From: Camelus ferus
Lineage: Eukaryota
Length of the DNA stretch: 64,000 bases
NCBI RefSeq assembly: GCF_009834535.1
Contig: NC_045696.1
Location: 60,948,001-61,012,000 of the forward strand
Direction: 5' to 3'
A model generated the notes under the pieces. The model was not told where the DNA came from and searched no databases. It worked only from the letters and a program-made list of their open reading frames with translations. Position 1 is the stretch's first letter, and each line of letters opens with the position of its first letter. Shown in pieces: positions 2,677 through 53,484 of the stretch. The position numbers and the translations under genes are program-made.

Positions 2677-4462
2677 CTCTATGTGTAAGCTATGGTAAGC
2701 CCAAAAGAATTGCATATTGGCAGAGAAGGTATAGGATTTCTAGTCTAAGACAATAATTTGAATGTTTGCTATTAAGAGCAATAGGGTTTTTTCTTTCTAT
2801 TTTCCAAGAGAAACTAAATGATTAGTATTCTGTAATTAACTCTGTGTGTTTGTGTTTGCCACATTTAGAAAAAATATACTAAGAAACTTGAACTCTGTAT
2901 TATCATGAAGTTGTAACTGCAATATAGTTCTATGTTGCAGTAAGGTTTCTTCCTCCAGAAAACAGACGAAAATAAAAATAATTCAAACTTTTGATACATA
3001 CTCTAAAGATAATAGTAACCCAACAAGTTAAAGAAAAATGGAAAGTTATGAGTCACACCAAGAACCCTGGCAAAGCAAAAAATTGCCTTTTTGACAAGGC
3101 AGCATAATATAAGACAGCAAAGGATATTTCATAATTTGCAAAAACCATAAACCCTCACTGAGACACAGATTATATGAAATAACTCATACTACTTATCTTG
3201 ATAATTGTTATCTTATACTGAATTTAAGTAATAGCTGTTAAATTACTAGATATCTTAGTTCAAATGCATTTTGCTAGAAAGTCATTAAGCATATAGATTA
3301 TAAATATTCCTTTGTTTAGAGGAAGAAGATAAATCTTTGGTGAAATTGGTCTTGATTAATCTGCTGGATACACATATGAAATCAGACTAAGTACACTGAG
3401 GAAACTAAGGAAGTTAAATTTAGGAGCCTTCAAATATACAGGATCAATGACATCATATAATGAGATTTATTGAAAATGAGCATCAAAAGTTGGCATTTAA
3501 ATGTCAATATTTCTGAAACTTTTGATAATACTTTAATTATAAGTTTGGTAGAATAACATATAGTAACATGGTACCTAAAATATGACTACACTGGGTATGA
3601 AGGAAAGGAAAAGATAGTAACTCAGTTTAAAACATAAATGCAAATCAACCGAAAGTTTTAATATTAGAGTAAGAAAAAAATTAAGTCAAATGAGAGTTAA
3701 AATTGTCCACATTCATGACTTTGAAAGGCTCCTACTACTTCACATAAATTATCTAAGTTGTCCCTTATGCCATCCTGTCTGGTATCAGTTGTCACATGAA
3801 GTAGTATAAAAGGAGGCTGCAATAGACAGACTGTAATCCTGTATCCTATTGCTCACTAAAAGGAACCAAGACTGCTTAAAGATAACAAATGCGCTATTTG
3901 GGGGAGAGGGAAATGAGATGGATCTAGAAAATCTTTTTGTTCTTGGAATGCAATTTTCAAGTTCTCAGCTCTCAAGAGGAGGGCTCCCACCCATGAAGGG
4001 TTCAGGTAGTGACATATGAGTACTGTATACAAAATGTAGAGCCAGTTATAAAGTTCTTGAATCTCTAAGAGATCTTTAAGTCCAGAAGGATCCTAAAAAG
4101 GAAAGGTAACATGAAAGGTGCTATGAAGAAATCAATACCTATCATGAAAAATTCTCCTTTTGTGACAAAAGGAGAGGATAGTCAAGACATAAATTCTACA
4201 GAAAATAAGTCTTTAAGTTGTATTTGTCATTATCTTATGTTGGAAAATAAAGAAGTGTCTACAAATTGCAAGTACTATGATAAGACAGCAAAATTAATAA
4301 ACCTGTGCCAGTCACTGTTGATCTGACCTCAAGAATGTTTAGTTCCTATTGTTACTAAACAGTGTCTTCATAAGCAAGATGAACAATTGAACCAGCACTA
4401 ATTAGGCTTCTAAAGCAAATATGAAAAACAAATATATCGATGAGAAATGAAGACCTACTTTT

Positions 4463-5761
4463 TTTTTTCATTTTTCTGTTTTATTAGGTACAACTGTTAC
4501 ACTTTGGCTGCACATATACAATTCATTGCATGTAAATACATATACACAATATACTGCACATATTATTTAAATTTACATATATGTACTGTTCATTATTTCT
4601 AAGAGCGTTTAGAGCTTTAGCTTTTTAAACTTACATAGTTATCAAAGGAATAAAGCCAACCACAAAATAAGAATTAATTCAAAAAGATACATACATCCCA
4701 CTATTAACAGCAACATTATTTATAATTGCCAAGATATGGAAGCATACTAAGTGCACATCAACAGATGAATGGATAAAGAAGATGCAGCATATGTATGTAA
4801 TGGAATACAACTCACCCATAAGAAAGAAGGATATTTTGCCATTTGCAACCCTTCATTCACTTTTTTTCCCCACTTCAAAAACCAGAATTTTAAAACTGAC
4901 AGAAACATTTCCATTGCATCAAAAATACCTAGAAATAAACTTAACCAAGGAGATTATCTATACTCTGAAAACTGTAGAACACTGATGAAGGAAACTGAAG
5001 ATGATACAAAGAAATGGAAAGATTATCTTGTGCTCTTGGAAGAATCAACATTACCAAAATGGCTGTACTACCCAAAGCAATCTACAGATCCAATGCAATC
5101 CCTGTCAAAGTACTCACAACATTTTCACAGAACTAGAACAAACAATTCCAAAATTTATATGGAACCATAAAAGACCCCAAACTGACAAAGCAATCTTTTA
5201 TGGGTCTTTTTTTAATCTCTCTCTCTTTCTTCATTTTGTTCTCTTTTCTTATGGTTTTATGACTAGAGAAGTTCCTTTAACATTTGTTGTAAAGCTGGTT
5301 TGGTGGTGCTGAAATCTTTTAGCTTTTGTTTATCTGTGAAGCTTTTGGTTTCTCCATGAAATCTGAATGAAAGCCTTGCTGGATAGAGTATTCTTGGTTG
5401 TAGGTTTTTCCCTTTCTTCACTTTAAATATATCTTGCCATTCTCTTCTGGCCTGTAGAGTTTCTGCTGAAAAATCAGCTGATAACCTTATGGGAGTTCCC
5501 TTGTATGTTACTTGTTGCTTTTCTCTTGCTAACTTTAATATTTTCTCCTTATTCTTAATTTTTGTCAGTTTGATGACTATGTGCCTTGGTGTGTTCCTCT
5601 TTGGGTTGATCCTGTGTGGAAGTCTCTGTGCTTCCTGGACTTGGGTGACTGTTTCCTTTCCAAAGTTGGGGAAGTTTTCGGTTATTATCTCTTCAAAATT
5701 TTTCTCAGGTTCTTTCTCTCTTCTCTTTCTAGGACCCCTATAATGCAAATACTAGTGCACT
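4463..5761 (-). mobile_element. 5'-truncated copy of the composite half-L1-like (HAL1-like) element
   Basis: ORF 5263..5748(-) encodes the L1 ORF1p C-terminal half. It is followed by inverted ORF2 pieces, a unique tail and poly(A), collinear with 40206-41513. TSD-like AATGAAGACCTACTTTT (4446-4462) / AATAAAGACCTGCTTTT (5762-5778). Confidence 0.9.
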
Positions 5762-6262
5762 AATAAAGACCTGCTTTTGGTATTACAATTTTGGGTAGAA
5801 AGTCCCAATCCTCATTAGAAGTGGGGACAAAAAAACACAGGAAGATTGAGCTGTGGACACAGGTTGGGGTTTCTGCATAAGCTGAGATCCTTACTGCACC
5901 AACAGGATGACATACTAAGGCTTTTTTTTTTAACCTTTTCTGCATAACTTTGGCAGCAGCCCTGCTGAGCCAAGACACAGTCCAAAAGGACTTGCTAACA
6001 TCACATTTGACTCTCACCATATACATAACCATGTTATGCCCAAATCATGAGCATATTATATCCTAGGAACAAGGTAAGTGATGGTGTAACTTTCTTCTTT
6101 GCCTACTGTATACTTTTCTCTTTTTAAAACAGACTGATGTTGAGAGTGCTCAATTTGGTTGGCCTATGTGGCATGGGGTTAGAATAACTGGGTTCAACTA
6201 TTTACTTAACTCAGAGACCCTCTGGAAAAAAAAGAGCAACCTCAGTCACCTGATTAGCTGTA

Positions 6263-8402: not shown

Positions 8403-8519
8403 TTGTTTTGAGGGGGAGAAGTAATTAGATTTACTTATTTTTAGAGGAGGTACTAGGGATTGAACGCAGGACCTCATGCATGCTAAACATGTGTTCTACC
8501 ACTGAGCTATATCCACCCC
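8403..8519 (-). mobile_element. tRNA-Ala-derived SINE (camelid Vic-1 type)
   Basis: Reverse complement reads GGGGTGGATATAGCTCAGTGGTAGAACAC...GAGGTCCTGCGTTCAATCCCTAGTACCTCCTCTAAAAATAAGTAAATCTAATTAC, the same body as 12033 and 26965. Confidence 0.85.
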
Positions 8520-12032: not shown

Positions 12033-12195
12033 GAGGGGGAGGTATAGCTCAAGTGGTAGAGCACGTGCTTAGCATGTATGAGGTCCTGGGTTCAATCCCC
12101 AGTACCTCCTCTAAAAATAAACAAACCTAATTACCTCCCCTCCACCAAAATAAAATAATTAAATAATACAATAATAAATAAAATATTTTTTAAAA
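12033..12195 (+). mobile_element. tRNA-Ala-derived SINE (camelid Vic-1 type)
   Basis: A box TAGCTCAAGTGG, anticodon-like CTTAGCAT, B box GGTTCAATCCC, AT-rich tail. TSD AAGGAATGTGAGCAA (12018-12032) / AAGAAATGTAAGCAA (12196-12210). Confidence 0.9.
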
Positions 12196-18929: not shown

Positions 18930-19680
18930 AAGGGCCTGTAGAAACCGGGGCGGGGCAAGGGTCTACCTCAGCAGCTGGGGAAGTTAATTTTCTAGGAGAG
19001 TAAAACACTACCCATCAATCCTCTACGGGCCTCTTCCCCGAGAGGCTGCTGTCCGCCTCGCCGCAGGCTCAGGGTCTGGCCCGCAGGCTCTGGGGCTGGG
19101 TGGGTTGGGGCAGTCAGCTTCTCCCCGTTACCCGGGAACCATCCAGGAGTTACGGGACCAGTTACTGTAACTACTGGCGATTTCCCCTCACCGGCTGGGG
19201 CGGCCTCCAGCCGCGCCCAGGGCCTCCGATCGGCAGGGATGCCCCCTGCCCCACTCACCCGCCCGGGTGGTGTCTGTCAGGTCGTGGTTGGCCGCTCCCC
19301 GGGGAAACTCCCTCAGTTTCCGGCCGCTCAGGCTCAGCACCCCGGTTACCGCCGCCTCCTCCAGCGCTCGGTCGAGGGAGCGGCTCCACGAGCCCGGGCC
19401 AGGACCAGGACCTGCCCCGGAGTTTGGGCCACAGTTAGAGGAGAGGTTCCCTCCCGACGCTCCTGGGCCAGAGTACTCTGCAGCCGTGGCCACAGAGACC
19501 AAGCCCGTGGCCGCCATTTCCCAGCCGACAACTCTCCGGCCCGCCGGCTCGGCGCATGCGCAGCCAGATGATGGGTGGGCGGGGAAAGGGGCGCACAGAC
19601 CCCGGACGATCCCCTTGATGGACAGGTTTGCGGTGCCCCTCGGCACAACTAGGCTCTTGCCTCCGCCCACATCAAGGTTT
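18930..19680 (-). promoter_or_regulatory. LRCH3: LRCH3 CpG-island promoter with NRF1 and YY1 motifs
   Basis: GC/CpG-rich. NRF1 palindrome GCGCATGCGC at 19552-19561, YY1 motif CCGCCATTT at 19511-19519 overlapping the ATG, GC boxes at ~19573-19583. Confidence 0.8.
19259..19517 (-). CDS. LRCH3: LRCH3 coding exon 1 (leucine-rich repeat and calponin homology domain protein 3), 86 codons + 1 nt
   Basis: Translates MAATGLVSVATAAEYSG...GSWSRSLDRALEEAAVTGVLSLSGRKLREFPRGAANHDLTDTTRA, matching the LRCH3 N-terminus. Ends at G|GTGAGT donor. Confidence 0.95.
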
Positions 19681-22600
19681 TCAAGGGAAATTAAAATGGA
19701 ACTCACAAATCTGGAGCAGGTCCCTACTTTAGGCTCCCAGTAACCTTCCTAATAGGCCACTACAAAAATATCTTTCGGATAACGCTCCTCACCAAAACTT
19801 CTCTACCTTCCTGCCTCAGTACTGGAGGATTAAACATTAAGTCTAGTCTTCTAAATATCGTTGCTGCCACAAACTTAGGCAGTGAGGAGACCCTGAGATA
19901 TGACCCAAAATGTTTCCTGACTTCTGTCATCCTGTGAACCAAACGATCTAAATGGAGACTTGGGGATTTATTAACTATTGTCGCCCGAGGGAAAAATGAG
20001 TATTAACCTGGCTCCCAAATATCATAATTTTCATTGAAAGGGTTACACAAATATTTTAGACCCTCCGTTTGACAAAACAGCCTCTTAACGAACATAAAAC
20101 AAACATCCTAAATAGCAATTGCCCTTTAGGCAATATTGTTGAACAAAGCTGGATGAACGGCATTAAAGTCTAAAATTTTGGTCTGGAACCAAAATTAAGG
20201 AAGAGAAAATGATCTGGCTATAATCTACATGTGTGAATTAAAGACAGACTGAAGAAATGGTTAAAAAAGAAAGAGAAAAAGAAAAACCACTCAGTTACTG
20301 GAAAAGTAGAAAATACCACTTCATTTTAAACCAATTAGACCTTACATTGCTCCCGGCCTTCAGCATATGGTTTCACACATCTAAGTCATTCCTGCTACAT
20401 GATGTAATTGTCCCCGACAATCAACTAGTATCTACTGTAGGAAATAGGCTGTCAGATACAATCCTCTTCCTAGATTATCTAATTATGGAATCCAGACAAA
20501 TATACCAATTAGAGATTAAAACTGCAAAAAAAAAAAAAAAAAAAGGTGGGGGTTGAGTAAGGATTTTGGGGATTATCCATCAGAATTCAGAGAAAAGGAA
20601 TCTAGTATATGACGGATGAATGAGGTTTTTAAGCAAATCTGAAGGATTCTGAAGTGGGATATGCTAGAAGATGAGAGCAATAACCCAGACTGGGAGGCGT
20701 ATCAGCATGAACACATCCAGGGATGATTTATAATGGTACATGTGGAGAACATTGCCACAGCCAAAAAGTTCATGTCAGATAGCAAAAGAAAGGTTGGAGA
20801 GGTTCTACCCATCATTCAAGATCCAACTCTTCAATGAAACCTTGGTTAGCACTTTCCCCAACGACTAAATGGAAGAGATTGTTAAAAGGTTTAATCTCAA
20901 TGTTAAGGCTAATCTTATAGTAGTAAGAGTTGTTCTGTGAACTTTTACTACTATGTTCTAGGTTCTTCAGTGACAAGTTCCATAGTCAATGTCAGTTATA
21001 AACAATGGCAAAGGATATATTTGTCATCCCTAGGAACATTTATCCAATGCATAAATTGGTTTTTGCTATTCGGGACTTCCTAAAAATTTTGTTATTCTTA
21101 GAAAGACTTAAAGCTATTTGAGACCAAGACCTCACTTTATATTTTTTAGAGCAATTTCAACCACAACTAAAAGTGCAACCATATATTCCATATTAACACA
21201 TTGCTATAGAAATAGCTGCCAGATACCTAAAATGCACAACTGTCATCTATGATTACCTACTACCTTCCACATTTACACTAAATTCTCCTTACGAGTTCTC
21301 CATAATATGGCCTCATTCTTCCTATCTACCTGCATATCTCATAACTGCAACACATCATGCAAATCCTGGTCTCTGAACTTCTGACCAAGTTTATATATTG
21401 ACGTTACTTTATCTATTCAACTAGATTAAGGTCCTTAATGTTAAACCCTATAATTATCTTCCATAACCTAGGGCTGAGTATAGCAATAGGAGTTTAAAAA
21501 CAGTAAGAATGAGTGGAAAGAAGCAGAGATAGGAGATGAGTTATGTACTAACACAGGAGAGATGGTTGGGAGAAAAAAAAAGAATTGTAATTCTTGAGAA
21601 CATTAAGGGTACATTAAGTGTGTAGATATTTGAAGGCCAAAACAAAGGCCTTGTGGATACAGGAAAAATGAAGACGCTATATATACACCATTATATGAAA
21701 ACAAGTCCTAGGTTAAAAAAAAAAAAAAAAAGCTAGAAGAAAAGATAGATCAAGGAGGTAATTTTGAGACTTTCAAGGATTTGAAATTTCATCTATGAAG
21801 TAAGGGTAGAATATGAGGAAATTCTCATCCTATCCTTCAGTCTTCTCCATAAAGCAAGGGACAAGATCATCCTGTGAGAATGAGGTTTAGGAAATGGAGT
21901 CATTGTAGGGAGTTAACCAGAGTCTAGTGATGAATAAAAGAAGTGATGAGAAACAGTTGCAAATAGGGCTGTGAGCAAAAAAACTACAGGGATCTATAAC
22001 CTACTCCATTACTGCTTCGTGATCTGGAAACATGAAAAGATAGGCAATCGGGATTACTGTTTGGAATTAACACAGAAAATTTCCCTGCTTCTTCCTGTGT
22101 ATTTTACAGGTAGAAAGTTTACTGACTTCCAGGAGCAAAAGTTTTACTCAAATCTCAATACCTCTCTCCAGCTCTTCATCTCACCTTATGGAGAAATAAA
22201 GCCCTTTCTCTGCTTTTACTCACTATAAATACATTATGGTCACTCCTTTAAGATTCCAAACTTTATAAACTCAAAGCAGTAGGATTAAAATCTTCACCAA
22301 TCCCATTCTCTTCAAATATAAAGCACAGAAACTGGTTTGTTGAATATATTCCCTTCCCTTTCTGACTCCTTTAATAAGAAGTATTAATAATTGACTTTTT
22401 AAAAATTTATATAAGAAAATTTAAACAATGTGATTTCCTTCTCATTAGAGGAAAATGGAAATAGAAATTAAACACATGCACTCTAGGGAAATAGTTTCCT
22501 ATTCATCTTTAAACATCAGTAAACCTCATCTGAATACACTGAGAAAAAGGAATTTCAGTTCCAGAATAGTATCACATTTCCTTGCTTTATCATGCTTTTT

Positions 22601-26849: not shown

Positions 26850-27925
26850 ACAAAAAAATCTGACAAAATGCAACACCCGTTCACGATAAAAATTCTCAGC
26901 AAATTACTAATAGAAAGGGAACTCCCTCAATCTGATAAAAAGAATCTACTGAAAACCTGCTGGTGGGGAAAGGGTATAAAGCTCAGTGGTAGAGCACATG
27001 CTTAGCATGCATGAGGTCCTGGGTTCAATCCCCAGTATCTCTATTAAAATAAGTAAATAAACCTAATTACCACTCCCTTCCAAAAACAAAAACAACAAAA
27101 ATCAAACTAGTGGTAACATCATACTTAACACTGAGAAATTTAATGCTTTCTCCTCAAGCCTGGAAATAAGGCAAGCATACATGCTCTCAACATAGTACAG
27201 AAGGTCCTGGCCATTATAAGAAAAAGAAAAAGTTTAAAGATTGGAAAGAAACTTGGAGAATAACATAATTGTTTACATAGAAAATCCTAAGGAATCTATA
27301 TAATTACTAATTTTAGCAAGATTACAAGATATAAGGTTAAAACAAAAACTGTCAAAACCGTGTGAGATTTACCACTTCATGTGCATCTGAATGTTTACAA
27401 TCAAGTGACGTAATAACAAATGTTGACAAAGACATGGAGAAATTTAGAACCTTTAAACATGTTGATAGGAATAGTACTACAGCTACTTCTTTGGAAGGCA
27501 ATTTGGTACCTCCTCAAAAAGTTAAACACATAGTTACAATATGATCTAGTTATTCCACTCTTAGATATTTCCCAAGAGAAATAAAAACATATACTCACAC
27601 AAAAACATAAATGTACAGGTTTTTGCATGAGCATATGTACATGAATGTTCAGAGGAGCATGACTGACAATAGCTAAAGAATGGAAACAGCCCCAATGTCC
27701 ATCAACTGATAAATAAATGTTATATCCATATGATGGAACATTATTCAGCAATAAAAAGAAATGAAATACTGATACACACTATAAAGAAACCATGAAAACA
27801 CTATGCTAAATGAAAAAAGCCCATCACAAAAGTTCACATATTGCATGATAACATTCATATGAAATGTCCAAAATAGGCAAATCTGGAGACAGAAAATAGA
27901 TAGACCAGTGGTTTCTTAGGATTGA
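26850..27925 (+). mobile_element. Old L1M fragments (ORF2 and 3'UTR), interrupted by a SINE
   Basis: ATAAAAATTCTCAGCAAA..GAAAATCCTAAGGAATCTA..TGGAAACAGCCCCAATGTCCATCAACTGAT..AATAGGCAAATC. Confidence 0.75.
26965..27101 (+). mobile_element. tRNA-Ala-derived SINE (camelid Vic-1 type)
   Basis: GCTCAGTGGTAGAGCACATGCTTAGCATGCATGAGGTCCTGGGTTCAATCCCCAGTATCTC..AAACCTAATTACC + A-rich tail. Confidence 0.88.
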
Positions 27926-28289: not shown

Positions 28290-30160
28290 GTGAAAGTATA
28301 GGTGATTTACACAATATTGTGTTAGTTTTAGATGTACAGCAGTGACTCAGTATTTTTGCAGATTATATTCCATTATAGGTTGTTACAATATACAATATAT
28401 CCTTGTTGCTTATCTATTTTGTATATAATAAGTCTGTATCTATTAATCTCATACCCCTAATTTGCTCCTTCCCCCTCCCCTTTTGTAACCACAAGTTTGT
28501 TTTCTATGTCTGTGAGTCTGTTTCTGCTTTGTATGTACATTCATTTATATTTTTCAGATTCTGCATAAAAGTGATATCATATATTGTCTTCCTCTGACTT
28601 ATTTCACAAGGCATAACATTCTCTAGGTCCATTCACACTGCTGCAAATGACAGTATTTCATTCTTTTTATGGCTGAGTAATATTCCACTGTATATATTCT
28701 ATATTTCATACACACACTACATCTTCTTAAGCCAATCATCTATTGATGAGCACTTGGGTTGCTTCCATGTTTTGGCTATTGAAAATAGTGCTGCTATGAA
28801 CACTGGGGTACACAGTGTCTTGAATTAGTGTCTTTGTTTTTTCCAGATACATACTCAGGAGTGGAATTGCTGGATTATATGGCAATTCTATTTTTAGTTT
28901 TTTAAGGAACTTCTATACTGTTTTCCACAGTGGCTGCACCAATTTACAAACAGTGTACAAGGGTTCTGCTCTTTTCACATCCTCTCCAAGTTATTTGTAG
29001 ACTTTTTGATGATGGCTATTCTGACAGGTGTGAGGTAGTCTCTCACTGTGGTTGTGAGTTGCATCTCTCTAATAATTAATAATGTTGAGCATTTTTTCAT
29101 GTGCCTGATACCCATCTGTATGTCTTCTTTGGAAAAATGTCTAGTCAGAAAAATAGCAGAAGCTCCATTTTTTGATTGGATTGTTTGGGTTTTTTGACAT
29201 TGAACTCTATGAGCTGTTTGAATATCTTGGATACTAACTTCTTGTCAGTTGCATCATTTGCAAATATCTTCTCCGATTCCATAGGTTGTCTTTTCATTTT
29301 GTTGATAGGTTTCCTTTGCTGTACAAAAGCTTTTAAGTTTAGTTAGGCCCCATTTGTTTATTTTTGCTTTTATTTCTTGTGCCTTGGGAGACTAATCTGA
29401 AAAAGTATTAGTTACAATTTATGTCAGAGTGTTTCATGTATGTTCTCTTCTAGGGGTTTTATGGTCTCATATCTTAAATGTAGGTCTTTAAACCATTTTG
29501 AGTTTATGTATACAGTGTGAGGGAATGTTCTAATTTCATTGTTTTACATGTGGCCTTCCAGTTTTCCCAGCACCACTTGTTGAAGAGACTGTCTTTTCTT
29601 CATTGTATACTTCTGCCTCCTTTGTCATAGACTAATTGACCATAGGTGTGTGGCTTTATTTCTGAGCTCTCTTTTCTGTTCTACTGATCCGTGTGTTTGT
29701 TTTTGTGCCAGTACCAGACTGTTTCAATTTCTATACTTTTGTAGTACAGTCTGAAGTCTGATAAGAGTTTTATCTCCAGCTTTGTTCTTTTTTCTCAGGA
29801 TTGCTTTGGTAATTTGGATCTCCTGTAGATCCATAAACATTTTTAGGATTTTTTGTTCTAGTTCTGTGAAAAATGTCTATACCTTAGGCAACATTCTGAT
29901 AGGGACTGCATTAAATCTGTAGATTGCTTTGGGTAGTATGGCAACTTAAGTAATATTAATTCTTCCAATACAAGAACATGGGATTATCTTTCCATTTTTT
30001 TGAATCATCTTCAATTTCCTTTATTAGTGTTTTATAGTTTTCAGCATATAGGTCTTTCACTTCCTTGTTTAAGTTTATTCCAGGTTTTTTTAATAGCAAT
30101 TTTAAACAAGACTGTTTTTCTGTATATTAATCTTGTATCCTGCAACCTTGCTGAATTAAA
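28290..30160 (-). mobile_element. 5'-truncated older LINE-1 (ORF2 3' part and 3'UTR)
   Basis: Antisense L1 hallmarks (TTTTTATGGCTGAGTAATATTCCA, CAGCACCACTTGTTGAAGAGACTGTC, CTGTAGATTGCTTTGGGTAGTATGG); many disruptions. Confidence 0.9.
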
Positions 30161-36745: not shown

Positions 36746-38241
36746 AGATAAGGTATTTATAAACCGTCAAAATCAGACAAATGACTAAAACTACCCATTA
36801 GCAGAAAATAACTGGTAAATATGCAGCAACAACAATTTTTTTTTTAAGTTCACAGAAGCACTAAAAGATTTAGTATTATTAGAGTCAACTTAAAAGTTAC
36901 ACAAAATAGAACATATCCTCAGCTTTGGGAAATTCTGAATCTAAAAGGGAAAAGTTATAGAACTGACATTGACAAGGTTATATATTCAGGTAGAAGAATC
37001 CCTTAAGAACTTAAACTCAACTTTCACTTGGCAGATATTTTAAGTTGATTCTAAATAAAAAGAAAATTCATTCTTAGAAACAACCATTCCTCTCCTAGCA
37101 CAGTCATTTGTTCTCTCAGTAAATACTAGTAATGTAAGTAAGTATGCTATCTTTCCTTACTTAGTAATTCACTTCATAGGTAAGAAAATGCAATTTTATT
37201 GACATAAAATCTCACTAATTCATATAAAGTATGGAAAGGCAGAGATAAAGTAACGAAAAGTCTAATTATGGTCAAGACTTTTTTAAAGGAAATTTCCAAG
37301 TATATGTAGCAATTCAAAGACAATTAAATTATTTAGGTAGTTTGTTTAATGACTAGAAAAGGCTGGTTATTTGCTAGAAAGTGATCTGTAGCACTCACTA
37401 TATTCTCTCCTGATCAGACATTAATCTATATTCAGGTTAAAAAAGGGTTCTTAAGAAATATACCTTTTCCAAAATCATTCAAACTTTGAATAAGTGGATC
37501 TTCAGTGCATTCTGAGTATACAATAATTTAACACTTTCAATTTTCACTATTTTCAAACAACTCAAAAGACTACCACATGTGGTAATTTAAAATTTTTCTA
37601 GAGCTAGTTCTGTGATAAAGTTTTAAAGAATAGCTGTTGGTGGTAGCAGAATTGAAAAGTTAAGAGGTGAAGACAGTTGTAGTTAACCAGAACACACACA
37701 TTTAAGTAATTTAAGAAATGAATGTCCTGAATTTTTTTTAACAAATGTGTATTACTTTCATAATCAGAGAAATCAAAAGGATTTAAAAACAGAACAGTGG
37801 AACAGATTTGGTGGCTTAGATTTACTAAACATAAGAAGCTAAAGAAACCCATCTGTGAAACTATTTTCAGGAATGCTTCATTTAGCCAATTCAAAAATTA
37901 CTCATTAAGATGTAAATAAAAATTCAGTTAAAATTTGAAAAGTAGTTAACTTATGGTGGGTAAATAATTGTAACTCTTTAAACCTAAGAGAAATGAAAAC
38001 CTGTGTCCATTACAGACTTACAGGTGATATTAACAGCAAAAAAATTTGCAATACCCAAAACAGTGGAAACCACCACAGTATCCATCAAGTGGTGAATGGA
38101 TAAACAAAATATAGTATATCTATATAATAAAATATTATTCAGTAATAAAAAGAGAAAGTACTGATACATACTACAACATGATGAACCTCAAAAATACTAT
38201 GGCTAAATGCCAGCCGACATATTATTGTATGATTCCATTTA

Positions 38242-38766
38242 CAGGCATACCTCAGAGTTACTGCCAATTTGGTTCCAGATCACTGCAATAAAGCAAATAT
38301 CGCAATAAAGCCAGCCACATGAATTTTTTGGTTTCCCAGCACATATAAAAGTTATGCTTACACTATACTGTAGTCTATTAAGTGTGCCATAACATTATGT
38401 CTAAAAAAACTATCTTAAAAATACTTTATTGTTAAAAAATGCTATCATTTTATACAACATTGTAAAATGATTATAAATCAATAAAAAATGTTTAAAAAAA
38501 TGCTATCACCTAATCCTTCAGCAAGTTGTGATCTCCTTGCAATAATAACATCAAAGATCACTGATCACAGATCACCATAACAAATATCATGATCGAACAG
38601 TTGGAAATATTACAAGAATTACCAATATGAAACTGAGCAAATGCTGTTGGAAAAACGACACCAACAGACTTGCTCAAGGCAGGGTTGCAACAAATCTTCA
38701 ATTTGTAAAAAAGGCAGTATTTAGGAAGCACAATAAAGTTGATGACAGTAAAACAAGGCATGCCTG
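38242..38766 (-). mobile_element. Tigger1 internal-deletion derivative (TcMar-Tigger MITE)
   Basis: TIRs CAGGCATACCTC... and ...AAGGCATGCCTG, TA target duplication at 38240-38241 and 38767-38768. Confidence 0.88.
38448..38494 (+). mobile_element. 47-nt extreme 3' tip of an L1 inserted in the Tigger1 element
   Basis: ACAACATTGTAAAATGATTATAAATCAATAAAAAATGTTT matches the L1 ends at ~924-963 and ~52851-52890. Perfect TSD AAAAAATGCTATCA (38434-38447 / 38495-38508). Confidence 0.85.
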
Positions 38767-38784
38767 TATATGAAACGTGCAGAA

Positions 38785-41513
38785 GTTTTTCCTGTTAAGA
38801 TGGCGGAGTGGTATGACCACGAGCTTGCCTCTCCTCATGACTACAAATAAGACCACAAATGACTGCTAAACAACCATTGAGAAAAAGACTGGAACCTAGC
38901 AAAAAAGAGCCTCTTCAACTGGAAACATAAAGAGGCAACCACAGCAGGATGGTAGGAGGGGTGTGCTCACGATATAATCAGGCCTTATGACCCCCTGGGA
39001 TAATTAAGGATAATTAAGTCGCAGAGGCCCTCGCACAGGAGTGAGAGTTCTAAGCCCCACATCAGGCCCCCCAGCCCGGGGTTCCAGCATTGGGAGGAGG
39101 AAGAGACCCCAGGACACCTGGTTTTGAAGGCCAGTGGTGCATAGCTCTAGGAGCCCCATGGGACTGGGGGCAACAGAGTCTTCATTCTCTTGGGAAGCGT
39201 ACACAGAATCTCATATGCTCCAGGTCCAAGGGCAGAGGCAGTGATTTCATAGGAACCTGGGCCAGGCCTGCCTGCTAGTTTTGGAAGGTCTCCTGGGGAC
39301 ACAGAGGACAGCTGCAGCTCACTCAGGGGACATAAAAGCTCGTGGCGGACATTCCAGGAGTGCTCATCTACATGAGCTTTCCTGGAGGCTGACATTTTGA
39401 TTGAATCATTAGCACCAAGACCTAGCCCCATCCAACAGCCTGTAAGGAAGCCTCAGACCAAACAACATACTGGGTGGGAACAGACTTCCTAAGCCAAAAA
39501 GGCCTCTAGCTAAGGCTCTACCCAAAAGAGGTCCAGGATCAAGTTTCATCCAGCAGTGGGCAGGCATACAGCTCCTCCTGCCAGGAAATCTGCATAAACC
39601 TCTAGTCCAGTCTCATTCAGGAGGCAGATACCAGAAACAAGAAATCAACAATCCCAAAGCCTGTGGAAGGAGGAGACTCAAACACAGGCCAGATTCTAAC
39701 ACTGGGACCAGCTGGACCTTAACCCTTGGGTGACAAGAGATAAGTATACTGCTGGGATGCATAGGACATTTCTCCAAGGTTGAGAAACATAACTAACCTA
39801 TCTAAAAATACAAAAAGAAAGATAAATATGAGGCAACAGAGGACTATGTCCTAGGCCAAGGCAAAGATAAAATCCTAGAAGAATAAATGAGTGATGAGGA
39901 GATAGGCAATGTATCTGAGAAAGAGTTTAAAGTAATGATGGCAAAGATATTCAGACAACTCAAGAGGAATATAGATGCATAGAGTGAAGTTTTAGCAAAG
40001 AGTTGGAAAATACAAAGAATATCCAGAGTTGAAGAATAAAATCACTGAAATGAACAACATGCTAGAAGGAATCAAGAATAGAATAAATGAGGCAGAAGGA
40101 CAGATCAGTGAGCTAGAAGACAGGTTAGTGGAGATCATTACTGCAGAACAGAAAAAAGAATGAAAAGAAATGAGGATAGTTTAAGAGAACTCTGGGACAA
40201 CATGAAGCACACTAATATTCACATTACAGGGGTCTCAGAAAGAGAAGAGAGAAAGGACCTGAGAAAAAATTTGGAGAGTTAACTGAAAACATCCCCAACT
40301 TGAGAAAGGACACAGTCACCCAAGTCCAGGAAGCGCAGAGAGTTCCATACAAGATCAACCCAAAGAGGAACACTCTGAGGCACATAGTCATCACGTTGAC
40401 AAAAACTAAGGATAAGGAGAAAATATTAAAATTAGCAAGAGAAAAGCAACAAATAACATGCAAGGGAACTCCTATAAGGTTATCAGCTGATTTTTCAGTA
40501 GAAATTCTATAAGCCAGAAGGGACTGGAAAGATATATTTAAAGTGATGAAAGGGAAAAACCTACAACCAAGAATACTCTATCCAGCAAAGCTCTCGTTCA
40601 GATTTGATGGAGAAATCAAGAGCTTCACAGATAAACAAAAGCTAAAAGAATTCAGCACCACCAAACCAGCTTTACAACAAATGTTAAAGGAACTTCTCCA
40701 GTCATCAAACCAGACGAAAAGAGAACAAAAAGAAGAAAAAAGAAAGAAAGAAAAAGACCCACAAAAGATTGCTTTGTCAGTTCGGGGTCTTTTATGGTTC
40801 AATATAAATTTTGGAATTCTTTGTTCTAGTTCTGTGAAAATGTGAGTACTGTGACACGGGTTGCAATGGATCTGTAGATTGCTTTGAGTAGTACAGCCAT
40901 TTTCATGATGTTGATTCTTCCAACCCAAGAGCACAAGATATCTTTCCATTTCTTTGTATCATCTTCAATTTACTTCATCAATGTTTTACAGTTTTCAGAG
41001 TACATAGATAACCTCCTTGGTTAAGTTTATTCTAGGTATTCTGTTGTTTTTGATGCAATGGAAATGTTACTGTCAGTTATAAAATTCTGGTTTTTGAAGT
41101 GGAAAAAAAAGTGAATGAAGGGCTGCAAATGGCAAAATATCCTTCTTTCTTATGGGTGAGTTGTATTTCATTACATACATAAGCTGCATCTTCTTTATCC
41201 ATTCATCTATTGATGCACACTTAGGATGCTTCCATATCTTGGCAATTATAAATAATGTTGCTGTTAATAGTGGGGTGTATATATCTTTTTGAATTAATTC
41301 TTATTTTATGGTTGGCTTTATTTCCTTTGGTAGCTATGTAAGTTTAAAAAGCTAAAGCTCTAAACATTCTTAGAAATAATGAATAGTGTACGTATGTAAA
41401 TTTAAAAAAATATGTGCAGTATGTTGTATATATGTATACATGCAATATATTGCACATGCACAGTCAAACTGTAACAATTCTATCTAGTAAAACTGAAAAA
41501 TGGAAAAAAAAAA
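38785..41513 (+). mobile_element. Full-length composite half-L1-like (HAL1-like) non-autonomous retroelement
   Basis: YY1 site AAGATGGCGG (38797-38806), ~1-kb 5'UTR, decayed ORF1 (~39828-40701), antisense ORF2 pieces (~40765-41062, ~41122-41295), AT-rich tail, poly(A). TSD GAAA(C/T)GTGCAGAA at 38772-38784 / 41514-41526. Confidence 0.9.
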
Positions 41514-41760
41514 GAAATGTGCAGAAAAGGTAAATTTATAGAAAATCTACAGGAAGCAGAATAGTGGTTGCCTGAGGCAACTGAAAGGGTATGACTGTGA
41601 ATGGACATGAGATTTCTTTTTAGAGTGATAGAAATGTTCTAAAATTTGATTATTGTGATGACTGTACAACTCTAAGTTTTCTAAAATTTCACTAAATTGT
41701 ACAGTTAAAATAAATTTTATATTATAAAATTATACTTTAATAACCTGTTAAAGACTGCAA

Positions 41761-45516: not shown

Positions 45517-45658
45517 CTAGGCATTGTGCTGAGTACCTTAATTTAAATGAGAACTTGATGAAGTTGATGCTAATATATCCATTTTGAAAAAGTGAGCAAA
45601 GTAGATGTAGAACTATGATTACCCAAAGGTCAGTTAGTAAATGGCAGAGCCATGATCT
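45517..45658 (+). repeat. MIR-derived 142-bp segment, donor of a local duplication
   Basis: Nearly identical to 46810-46952; AGGTCAG..AGTAAATGGCAGAGCC is MIR-like. Confidence 0.9.
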
Positions 45659-46809
45659 GCGGTGCAAGTTTGTGTGGCTCCAAAAACTGAAAGTTTCCAA
45701 ACTGTTATATATAAAAAACTAAAGAATAATAAAAGGCAGAATATAATGTATGGTACATTTCCAAAGATAAAAAAAAAAAACTATTACAGAAAAAGCAGGT
45801 TCTGAGCTAGTTATTATACAACGGGCAAACTATGAATAGGAATATAGACAAAGTGACAAGTACAAAGACATGGGCAACCACAGTTATTGAGAGACAGTCT
45901 AGGGAAAAGGATAAGAAGTGAATGGACGTGGTGGGTGCAAATCACAGGGCTGTAAGCGTGGATAAAGACTACACTTGACAAGGAATGGGGTGGAGGTCAC
46001 AGAATTCATGATCAGACTACATCAGTCTAGAAGCAGTACCTTCTAGTGAATGAAAGAAGAGAGAAGGTAGTGAGACCATTTCAGATGCAACTGCAACACT
46101 CAGCATAAGAGACTGGGTGAGGAACAAAGAATTTATAAAAAATACAAATGAATCAGTAGAGCTAAGAGAAAGTTTAAAAAGAGGAAGAATCAACTATTAT
46201 ACTAAAATTTTAATCTTATGTGAGAAAGACTCATGAAAAAAATCTCACTAACAAGAATAAAGCTGGTTAAAAGGAGAAAAGTATGGGATAGAATTCTATT
46301 CCTGGGTCCCTTCTATTTCTGACTATTATAGACATTCCCATAGTCATCACCCTTTCTCCCATATTCTTCTTCCTTTCTTGTCAGTGGCTTCTTCTCCTTT
46401 ACCTTCTAGCAAGCCTGGATCATCCGTTCTTCCTCCCTTCTTTTCTATCTTTGAACAAACTTCATTAGCTATATCTCAATTTTAGCAATGGTTCTATTTT
46501 ACCCTTTCATTGCCATGTTTCATGCAATAGTCTTTTCTTAGTTTTCATCCATTTAACCCCTTAAAAAGTTCTCTTCTGTTTTTCCAGAGTACCTTCATTC
46601 TCATTACTTCAACTACTACCTCTATGAAGATCTTTCATTTTCACCTCCACTGGAGCAGCAGTTTAACACAATAGCTATGTATCAAAAGCACATATGGAGC
46701 TAAAAAAAAAAAATCCCTAGGCCCTACTTCTACAGATTCTGGTTTAGTAGCAATGGAGTGCAGCCAGCGCATCAGACTAATTTATAAAGCTCCACTAATT
46801 TATAAAGCT

Positions 46810-46952
46810 CTAGGCATTGTGCTGAGTACCTTAATTTAAATGAGAACTTGATGAAGCTGATGCTAATATCTCCATTTTGAAAAAGTGAGCAAAGTGAGAT
46901 GTAGAACAATGATTACCCAGAGGTCAGTTAGTAAATGGCAGAGCCATGATCT
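46810..46952 (+). repeat. Duplicated copy of 45517-45658
   Basis: 4 substitutions and 1 indel relative to the first copy by manual alignment. Confidence 0.92.
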
Positions 46953-47166
46953 AAGGCTAAAGTTTCCTCTGAATCCTTAGCCCAATTCCTTCATGAATTT
47001 CTTTCACAAACACATCCACTTGCCTCAGTACTTTCTATAGCCTGATCACTTACATGAAGATTTGAGGGATTTTCTGGAAAATGTATCAGAGTGTATGTTA
47101 TCATGTTACTGGCTCCTTCTCAAAATAGCCTACAAATACTCTTGTCTCTTCTACCTCTAAAAGAAA

Positions 47167-49624: not shown

Positions 49625-51340
49625 CTGTGATAGAGGAAATGTAATGATTATTTTCATTTTAACTCAATGACTCAACTACTCAGTCTTATTTTCTAGTTAA
49701 TAGATTTCCTATGCCCCTAACTTCTTTTCTATTTTGAAAGCACTTCCATAAGAGGATATAATTAAAAGTATATAAAAAGCTCAAATCAGCCAAAACACTT
49801 GCAGCACTGAAGAAAGTTTTGAAGGAAAAGTTCAAATCAATAGCTCAAAGCAGATCAACCAATTAATGAAGATTTCTGTTATCCCTGATATATGTAAATA
49901 AGCAAAAGCCTGCTTACAAAAATTACTCATATTTACTTTCCATAATCACAGAAGTCTCCAGTTTTTAAAGATGACCACCTTTCAATAAAACCACTGGCAG
50001 TCAAAAAATAAGTCATTCAATAAAAGATTAGATTTCTAAGTTCATCTCAATTCAGCAAATATTTATTGAGTATGTGCAATGAGTATATGTGTCAGACTGT
50101 ACTGTAACAGAAACAAAAGTAAAATATGATTCCTGCTCTCAGTAAGTTTAAAATTAGTGACGGAAACAGACATGTAAATAGTAAATACAAAATTAAACAA
50201 ATACCATCATAAAGGTATAGTACCAAAAACAAACTATTGGTTGGTTCTTTGCTCCTCTAGCAAAGCAAGTCAGGGTTACCTTATTTTTCTTTCCACATTG
50301 ATCTCTAAGTCCCATTATTTCCAAAAACATTTCAAACTGCCCCAAGGTAATTTACAAACATCACCCTGCTGCAATAGCACAACAGAACAGTGTGAAGATC
50401 AGGAAACTAAATGTACTCCAGATTCCTATATACATCTGTTAAAAGGAGGTTACTAAAAGCCAAAAATACTCATTTAAGAAGATTTCTCCAAAGTCCCAAC
50501 TCCAATACTAATTTTGGTAATTGAAAATACAATAAATAAACCAAAGAAACTGAAAGCGATCAACAACTTAATAAAATTCACAAAACTAACTAACCTGTTA
50601 TTTCTTCCAAACTGCTATAAACACAAATAATCTAACAACTATATCAATATAACTAGTCTTTTCTGAAGTCAAAGAAGGAAATATAAACTACAGGGATCTT
50701 TTTTATACATTACATATTACTACTCTACCTCACCTATCTGTAATCTTTAAGACTCTTAATCACATTCAAACAAATATTATATAAAATAATTCAAATCTCC
50801 CCAAAATAGTTTGTTCTTTGATCTTTCTTTGATCTTCCTAAGGAACAATCCTTCAACTACAAAAAAGCTCATCAAAGTTAAGACACTCAAAAAACATTTT
50901 TTTACAAAATAGAGATTTCATAAATATCAGTTGCATGAACATCTTAAATTACCAGTGAGCAGAAAGGGAATAGTTAGAAAGACACTACTTTTGAAACACT
51001 ACTTTCCTTTAACAAGGTGCTACTTGAAATCTCAGAGACATGAGTACCTCTTAAAAATGAATTTGGTTTGGAGACCACCAAAAAAAGGGGGGTGGTCGGG
51101 GCACAAGTATAATTTTGACTAATCAGGTTGTTTTAAAACTAGAGCACTATAGAGTATAAACATAATTAAAAATTAAAAGTAGCAAAGCATATAAAATATA
51201 AAATTATGTTTTGTAAACATTTTATTATTTAACTCAAGTTAAATAGAGCTATTATGACAGGATTCTTCCAATCTAAAAGAAGGAAATGGCTTTTTCCTAA
51301 ACAAGGAGTAAATAGGGTAGGCATCAAAAGAAAAAAAATC

Positions 51341-52890
51341 TACTGAAGGAAAAGAAAGAAGCTGGAGGAATAACTATCCCAGACTTCAGACAATATTACA
51401 GAGCTACAGTAATCAAGACAGCATGGTACTGGTACAAAAACAGACATATAGACGAATGGAACAGAAGAGAGAGCCCAGAAATGAACCCACAAACTTCTGG
51501 TCAACTAATCTTCGACAAAGGAGGCAAGAATATACAATGGAATAAAGACAGTCTCTTCAGCAAATGGTGTTGGGAAAACTGGACAGCAGCATGTAAAGCA
51601 ATGAAGCTAGAACACTCCCTTACACCAGACACAAAAATAAACTCAAAATGGATCAAAGACTTAAACATAAGACAAGATACAACAAATCTCCTAGAAGAAA
51701 ATATAGGCAAAACATTATCTCATATACATCTCAAAAATGCTCTCCTAGGGCAATCTACCCAAGAAATAAAAATAAAAGCAAGAATAAACAAATGGGATCT
51801 AATTAAACATACAAGCTTCTGCACAGCAAAGGAAACCATAAGTAAAACAAAACGACAACCTACGGAATGGGAGAAAAGTTTTGCAAATCATGAAACCGAC
51901 AAAGACTTGATCTCCAGAATATATAAGCAGCTCATACAACTTAATAAGAAAAAAACAAACAACCCAATCCAAAACTGGGCAGAAGACCTAAACAAGCAAT
52001 TCTCCAAGGAAGAAATACAAATGATCAATAGGCACATGGAAAAATGCTCAATATCACTAATTATCAGAGAAATGCAAAACAAAACTACAGTCAGATATCA
52101 CCTCACACCAGTCAGAATGGCCATCATTCAAAAGTCCACAAACGACAAATGCTGGAGAGGCTGTGGAGAAAAGGGAACCCTTCTACACTGCTCGTGGGAA
52201 TGCAGTTTGGTGCAGCCACTGTGGAAAACAGTATGGAGATTCCTCAAAAGACTAGAAATAGACTTACCATATGACCCAGGAATCCTGCTCCTGGGCATAT
52301 ATCCAGAAGGAACCCTACTTCAAAATGACACCTGCACCCCAATGTTCATAGCAGCACTATTTACAATAGCCAAGATTTGGAAACAGCCTAAATATCCATC
52401 GACAGAGGACTGGATAAAGAAGATGTGGTGTATTTATACAATGGAATATTATTCAGCCATAAAAACCGACAACGTAACACCATTTGCAGCAACATGGATG
52501 TTCCTGGAGAATATCATTCTAAGTGAAATAAGCCAGAAAGAGAAAGAAAAATACCATGTGAGATCGCTCATATGTGGAATCTAAAACAAAAACAAAAACA
52601 AAAACATAAATACAAAACAGAAACAGACTCATAGACATAGAGTATGAACTTGTGGTTGCCAGGGGGACGGGGGGGTGGGAAGGGACAGACTGGGATTTCA
52701 AAATGTAGAACAGACAAACAAGGTTGCACTGTGTAGCACAGGGAAATATATACAGGATCTTGTGGTGGCTCACAGCAAAAGAGAATGCGACAACGAATGT
52801 ATGTATGTTCATATATAACTGAAAAATTGTGCTCTACACTGGAATTTATCACAACATTGTAAATGACTATAACTCAATAAAAAAAGTTTT
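51341..52890 (+). mobile_element. Young 5'-truncated LINE-1 (~1.55 kb) in FYTTD1 intron 1, antisense to the gene
   Basis: Uninterrupted ORF2 frame 51343-52584 with the CCHC knuckle, 3'UTR, AATAAA. TSD AAAAAAATC at 51332-51340 / 52891-52899. Confidence 0.95.
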
Positions 52891-53484
52891 AAAAAAATCC
52901 ATTATGATGAGCTACTTTTATAAAAAACAGGGGTATATACATGATAATAATAACAGTAGTAACTAACAGGATTGTTCTGAAAACCGGTATTCATCCAATT
53001 CTCACAAAAAGTCTATGAAATAAATATTATAACACCCATTTTCAATTAAGAAACTGAGCTACACTGTGACCAGCTATTGCTAACCTTGATAGATAATTCT
53101 ATATGAATATTCATAAAACCTGATAGTCATGATTCAAAACAAAACAAAAAAATTAGATTCTAAAACCTCTAAAGACCTGATAAAATGGAGTATTTACAAA
53201 GCATCATTCTTATCTAAAATAGATGTCTCTTCATACATCTGTAAAATTCTCACTTAAAAAAAAAAAAAAGACACCTGACAGAATGCTGTATGTTCTAAGG
53301 GAAGAGACCAAACTCTATTCCAGCTACCCACTGCACTTCACTTCTACCTTCAAACAGAATTATCTCTGTTTTCTTCACCTGAACATCCTCATCACCACAC
53401 ATAAATACAACAAAAATCCTAGAAATAAGAAATGTATTGGTTATGAAAATACATGTCTAACACTTCCTACAACATCTGTAGCTT

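Follow-up and report, generated by a model that had tools for sequence, protein, structure and literature searches.

A composite L1 derivative with an ORF1-only head and two antisense ORF2 scraps, inserted twice in a 64-kb stretch of the Camelus ferus genome

A 64 000 nt stretch of Camelus ferus contig NC_045696.1 (positions 60 948 001 to 61 012 000), referred to below as the window and numbered from its first base, contains an element that starts as an L1, has no sense-strand ORF2 downstream of ORF1 and carries instead two pieces of ORF2 in reverse orientation. The question raised by this locus is what kind of element this is, and how it came to be assembled and copied. In a first-pass annotation, made from the letters alone, it was described as a composite HAL1 (half-L1) element that had been mobilized as a unit and belonged to a family.

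Structure of copy A and its surroundings

The whole element, referred to here as copy A, occupies 38785-41513 on the forward strand (~2.7 kb). It lies between 13-nt target-site duplications, GAAACGTGCAGAA at 38772-38784 (+) and GAAATGTGCAGAA at 41514-41526 (+), that differ by 1 mismatch, and an equally good match was obtained for 1 of ~2000 random pairs of 30×30-nt windows. An L1-type 5′ UTR of ~1040 nt (38785-39827, +) is GC-rich and CpG-depleted, and includes near the 5′ end of the element the decamer AAGATGGCGG (38797-38806, +), which we take to be a YY1 site. ORF1 (39828-40701, +), with a putative start ATG at 39828, was delimited using Pfam matches and a frameshift-aware alignment to P0005 and P0010. 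An A-rich stub of ~65 nt (40702-40764, +) follows the position of the ORF1 stop. By eye, it is similar to the short pig L1A1 spacer and to the P0030 and P0061 read-through tails, and is likely to be the inter-ORF spacer of the parent L1, broken before ORF2.

The two ORF2 scraps are both antisense to the element. Scrap 1 (40765-41066, −) represents approximately aa 755-861 of human ORF2p, with the lower bound deduced from its length. Its copy A version matches aa 792-830 (E 4e-11) and the version in the second copy described below (copy B) matches aa 822-861 (E 0.004-0.007). Two other scrap 1 frames that were searched gave no ORF2 match, as expected for a frameshifted fossil. Scrap 1 is 72.5 % identical to the L1 at 29799-30088, relative to which both copies have a 4-nt gap. 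A 55-nt spacer (41067-41121, no strand assigned), the same in copy B, has no convincing match elsewhere within the 64-kb window. Scrap 2 (41122-41296, −; ~aa 1186-1244) matches human ORF2p aa 1189-1244 (E 2e-8), and four further L1 pieces of the window are 72-78 % identical to it. A younger, 5′-truncated L1 at 51316-52897 includes a 422-codon open stretch of ORF2 and shares 84 % identity with an L1 end located at 1-970; scrap 2 is just 75-78 % identical to these two. The AT-rich 3′ end (41297-41503, +; ~200 nt) includes the poly(A) signal AGTAAA at 41486-41491, for which copy B has the canonical AATAAA at 4480-4485, 27 nt from its end, and is followed by a poly(A) remnant of 10 A (41504-41513, +). 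When this tail was compared, on both strands, with the 3′ regions of five L1s in the window, eight of the ten scores were in the shuffle range and two were slightly above it, in gappy, AT-rich alignments, so that none was convincing.

The anatomy is thus as set out in the first-pass annotation, namely a ~2.7-kb element between 13-bp duplications, an L1-type 5′ end, 5′ UTR and ORF1 (the last now backed by Pfam matches) without a sense ORF2, two non-adjacent reverse ORF2 pieces (now placed at ~aa 755-861 and 1189-1244), and a ~200-nt AT-rich tail ending in poly(A).

The surroundings of copy A (38028-41750) are nested. An old L1 3′ end is split at TA by a DNA-transposon remnant, presumably Tigger-like, with terminal repeats at 38243 and ~38768, and copy A is found a few bases beyond it. 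The old L1 3′ end that starts upstream of the element resumes in the flank beginning at the 3′ duplication of copy A. In an empty-site test, the outer flanks, taken upstream of the adjoining DNA-transposon remnant and from the 3′ duplication onward, aligned end to end (positions 389 and 392) on the 3′ end of another old L1 within the window. The downstream flank scored 115.5, above all shuffles (maximum 84.5), and the upstream flank a borderline 73.0 (shuffle maximum 75.0). Copy A is antisense within an intron of an FYTTD1-like gene (55250-27980, −), exons of which match Pfam FYTT at 55.2, 49.5, 35.0 and 28.1 kb. Part of copy A is present in 20 of 24 sequencing runs (at least half of its words in 16; 8 recorded as RNA), but these matches do not separate the copy A locus from other copies and were not used as evidence; the intronic position is the likely reason for copy A sequence in RNA runs. 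The window also contains a 156-nt direct repeat (45517-45671 and 46810-46965, 93.6 % identity, 1.3 kb apart) and a repeat of ~115 nt in three copies (8406-8519, 12036-12155 and 26976-27091, ~84 % identity).

Two independent insertions of one composite

The second copy, copy B (4463-5761, −), is 5′-truncated inside ORF1 and has the junctions and tail of copy A. The alignment of 40210-41512 with 5757-4459 covers 1316 nt at 89.3 % identity and is colinear over all three junctions, with the similarity ending at the poly(A) and at the copy B truncation point. Copy B has its own 17-nt target-site duplication (3′ at 4446-4462 and 5′ at 5762-5778, both −), with 2 mismatches, and none of ~2000 random pairs matched equally well. 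The nick sites, TTTC/AT for copy A and TTTT/GG on the cut strand for copy B, are both close to the YYYY/RR given in passages of PMC4859970. Copy B would lie downstream of, and on the same strand as, a first coding exon (19191-19748, −) with a CpG island at 19001-19500; this exon resembles LRCH3 and has no Pfam match.

The two copies are 33 kb apart, inverted, and their flanks are unrelated. A segmental duplication, which shared flanks would have favoured, was rejected as the origin of copy B, which has a 17-nt duplication, a poly(A) and a truncation of its own and no flank in common with copy A. Copies A and B each go back to a separate target-primed insertion of the same composite RNA, an independent insertion at ~4463-5761 having been proposed in the first-pass annotation. 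Copy A has a duplication and poly(A) at its own borders, which implies that a third copy served as the source. The further claim that this is a family and not a one-off rearrangement is retained insofar as there are two separate insertions; the family as it stands consists only of these two and the source that they imply.

The alternative is that there is no family and that copy B is a local derivative of copy A, arising by DNA duplication or as a single retrocopy. The proximity of the copies, a frameshift that they share (see below) and the finding of no third copy here would all suit it, but DNA duplication is excluded by the features of copy B listed above and copy A bears the marks of being a copy itself. 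L1 insertions are not known to favour sites close to their source, and we consider a local derivation highly improbable. The scans for a third copy using junction motifs covered viral and prokaryote collections, not mammalian genomes, and returned 0 and 0 matches. The tail motif was found at two loci in metagenome contigs, over only 24 and 22 nt, both attributable to chance. A protein search with the frame across junction 1 gave 32 matches, the best-scoring 64 % identical over 77 %, with no recognisable family copy among them. Protein searches with scrap 2 returned short ORF2 fragments only, with no full ORF2p and none clearly entering the 55-nt spacer.

A one-off twin-primed L1 was also rejected. 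The 5′ part is in the sense orientation, the ORF2 pieces are both reversed, and two insertions have this same structure; the pattern of an inverted 5′ part with a sense L1 3′ part and poly(A) was not found.

ORF1 and the origin of the composite

The intact ORF1 for which the first-pass annotation had suggested looking is not present in copy A, where the reading frame is dead, with at least four frameshifts, 2-3 stops and loss of the native stop (CAG in copy A, TAG in copy B). Three of the eight frames submitted match Pfam Tnp_22_trimer, Transposase_22 and Tnp_22_dsRBD, representing the trimer, RRM-like and C-terminal domains. Among the best 120 of 463 matches, those most similar to ORF1 and carrying a name are L1 proteins of cetartiodactyls, with identities of 77-81 % for whales and 77 % for pig, and the best unnamed one is 83 % identical. 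One frameshift, in a purine run at 40240-40252 (+), is also found in copy B (~5707-5720), where ORF1 is open from that point to the TAG, over the last 152 codons. The anchors used are 50 nt apart in copy A and 53 nt apart in copy B, whereas 71 of the 73 scored homologues have a distance of 57 or 54 nt. The 489 nt of ORF1 that are present in both copies hold no other frameshift, and this one has the same place and size in each.

Of the conserved ORF1 columns, 6/119 are changed alike in copies A and B (outgroup P0005-P0120 under 330 aa). The small number of changes shared in the RRM-like and C-terminal domains indicates that ORF1 was under constraint until shortly before the copies separated. 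Selection on ORF1 after the split was rejected, as the A-B dN/dS of 0.53 is inside the simulated neutral range of 0.31-1.58. For scrap 2, 11/47 conserved residues are altered alike (outgroup P0121-P0279), which differs from ORF1 with a Fisher p of 0.001, noting that the homologue sets differ in make-up. These shared changes and the common 4-nt gap in scrap 1 indicate that the scraps were non-coding before the split.

The shared frameshift is due either to a broken ORF1 in the source, to double slippage of the purine run or to an old gene conversion. Judged from the reading frames, the element from which A and B were directly copied may already have lacked the ability to make ORF1p, and would then have moved as a long, non-coding passenger that relied on L1s for both proteins in trans. 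The identity of the sole frameshift in place and size argues for this, and mobilization in trans without its own ORF1p is plausible by analogy with SVA, LAVA and pol II transcripts, which take ORF1p and ORF2p in trans according to PMC5174737 and PMC2666806. However, the run is slippage-prone, with 14 of the 73 homologues one codon shorter at this site, and a 1-nt loss could recur. Gene conversion between inverted copies 33 kb apart could also have spread the lesion, and the scarcity of shared changes in the RRM-like and C-terminal domains speaks for constraint on ORF1 until not long before the copies separated. A source with a dead ORF1 is therefore possible but, in our assessment, somewhat unlikely. 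It is compatible with the explanation favoured below, from which it differs in that the label would shift from HAL1 to SVA/LAVA-like.

We consider that the element is probably a dead HAL1-type composite with a captured scrap tail, copied in trans by the ORF2 enzyme of full-length L1s. An ancestral L1 would have lost ORF2 just past ORF1, by deletion or 3′ truncation, and its promoter would then have read into adjoining DNA that contained a functional AATAAA as well as two L1 scraps in antisense orientation, already in decay. The read-through RNA, made up of L1 5′ UTR, ORF1, scrap tail and poly(A), would have become the source element, presumably located elsewhere and copied in the manner of HAL1, with the ORF2 scraps as passengers. 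As the element encodes no ORF2, the reverse transcriptase must have come from elsewhere. Mobilization of a non-autonomous L1 derivative as a unit, as originally proposed, accords with the two target duplications, the poly(A) tails, the truncation of B and the shared junctions. The HAL1 reading holds in that this is an ORF1-only L1 derivative, but whether that ORF1 was coding is doubtful because of the shared frameshift, and because two copies cannot decide its cause HAL1 membership is provisional.

On the L1 strand, the scraps are in the order aa 1189-1244, then ~aa 755-861, so they do not come from one L1 with a single deletion or a single inversion. This order and the decay that preceded the split best fit capture of the tail from flanking DNA, as in gibbon LAVA, and 3′ transduction by read-through is a known process (passages of PMC4859970). 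Against this, there are two copies only and no source or progenitor locus is seen in the window, a source providing ORF1p for itself is at odds with the shared frameshift, and decay before the split would also be expected if the scraps had aged within a long-lived source lineage.

Alternatively, the scraps could derive from the ORF2 of the parent L1 itself, through a two-step breakage and inversion at the site followed by trimming. Read along the element, ORF1, aa 755-861 and aa 1186-1244 indeed follow one another as in the parent, with each piece flipped, and both scraps are internal ORF2 without a 3′ UTR. Most L1 fossils, unlike internal ORF2 scraps, include the 3′ UTR. A 9-bp inverted repeat also flanks the ORF1/scrap-1 junction in both copies (40740-40805 and 5158-5223), but the hairpin is weak (folding z ~-1.9, with 9 and 7 of 200 shuffles folding equally well) and was not accepted as meaningful. 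Two inversions and several deletions would be required, and the 55-nt spacer and 200-nt tail would still need another source. Twin priming, as described in passages of PMC4859970, inverts the 5′ end and keeps the sense L1 3′ end, which is not seen here. Overall, an in-place origin of the scraps appears unlikely.

The distance between copies A and B is 0.101 (K2P) and, at the 1-2.2e-9 per site per year quoted in passages of PMC6501411, the pair would be ~23-50 My old. At that age, the element is predicted to be present in both camels and alpacas. The element as it is known represents one further, likely independent, origin of a half-L1. For annotation, repeat maskers are likely to split such copies into one sense and two antisense L1 pieces. 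The unique spacer and tail would allow the progenitor locus to be traced, as was done for LAVA. The usual explanation for the success of HAL1 elements, in passages of PMC2241872 and PMC5786205, is that L1 reverse transcriptase acts more readily on their RNA because of the ORF1p that they encode. This could be tested directly by comparing the numbers of copies that carry and that lack the shared frameshift. An uncatalogued camelid half-L1 lineage that had multiplied to many copies, as a non-coding passenger of 2.7 kb, after ORF1 broke in the source is an outcome that we regard as doubtful. Were it true, spread on this scale would be a natural test, indicating that HAL1's own ORF1p is dispensable for success.

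Comparison with HAL1, LAVA and other composite elements

HAL1 elements were reportedly described by Smit 1999 and Bao & Jurka 2010. They are ORF1-only, polyadenylated, flanked by target-site duplications and dependent on full L1s (passages of PMC5322556, with characteristics drawn also from PMC5786205 and PMC13756887), and arose independently and repeatedly in mammals (passages of PMC5753468). Lineage families are described in parts of PMC3183009 and PMC3342881 for marmoset, guinea pig and bats, of PMC2241872 for rat and of PMC6501411 for pig. The camel element is like HAL1 in its homology to an L1 5′ UTR and ORF1 without a sense ORF2, in the poly(A) and target duplications found with both copies, and in that reverse transcriptase and endonuclease would have to be supplied by full L1s. 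It is unlike HAL1 in that the 3′ part consists of two out-of-order antisense ORF2 scraps and apparently non-L1 DNA, no L1 3′ end was detected in the element, and a frameshift in ORF1 is present in both copies. A bipartite non-autonomous LINE, as described in passages of PMC5786205, keeps the 5′ and 3′ parts of its parent after internal deletion; the camel element is not assigned to this type, as two of the ten tail comparisons above were only slightly beyond the shuffles and the other eight within them.

Pig HAL1_SSc (L1A6 in PMC6501411) has a similar plan, with a length of 3016 nt, a 5′ UTR of 944 and an ORF1 of 906, and at K 0.069 its age is comparable to that of the camel element. The 5′ UTR of pig L1A/HAL1_SSc has a 29-nt motif that recurs in copy A at 39036-39064 with 1 mismatch (0 matches in 100 shuffles). 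By eye, the pig element differs in having a longer spacer, a different AT-rich tail without scraps and an apparent L1 3′ UTR end. Three exact junction and tail motifs had 0 matches in the PMC6501411 supplement, where line breaks could mask one. An independent origin of the two elements is likely. A literature search that included main-text passages of the camelid TE survey PMC8605555 found no naming of a camelid HAL1, and a Repbase table for the camelid casein cluster (~190 kb) has six HAL1 entries, all named for tree shrew or bat and 73-85 nt long. That the element is new to the catalogues is unproven, the pig HAL1_SSc consensus being the only one with which it was compared.

No VNTR or long internal repeat, as in SVA and LAVA, was found in the element. 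Gibbon LAVA is a non-autonomous composite, the 3′ part of which is made up of AluSz, antisense L1ME5 and short unique spacers from one locus (passages of PMC5174737). The camel element is like LAVA in being a non-autonomous composite with antisense scraps of old L1 in its tail. However, the head of LAVA is SVA-derived and non-coding and its progenitor locus is known, according to the same passages, whereas the camel element has an L1 promoter and ORF1 as its head and no known progenitor locus. The resemblance is limited to the likely way in which the two elements gained their tails.
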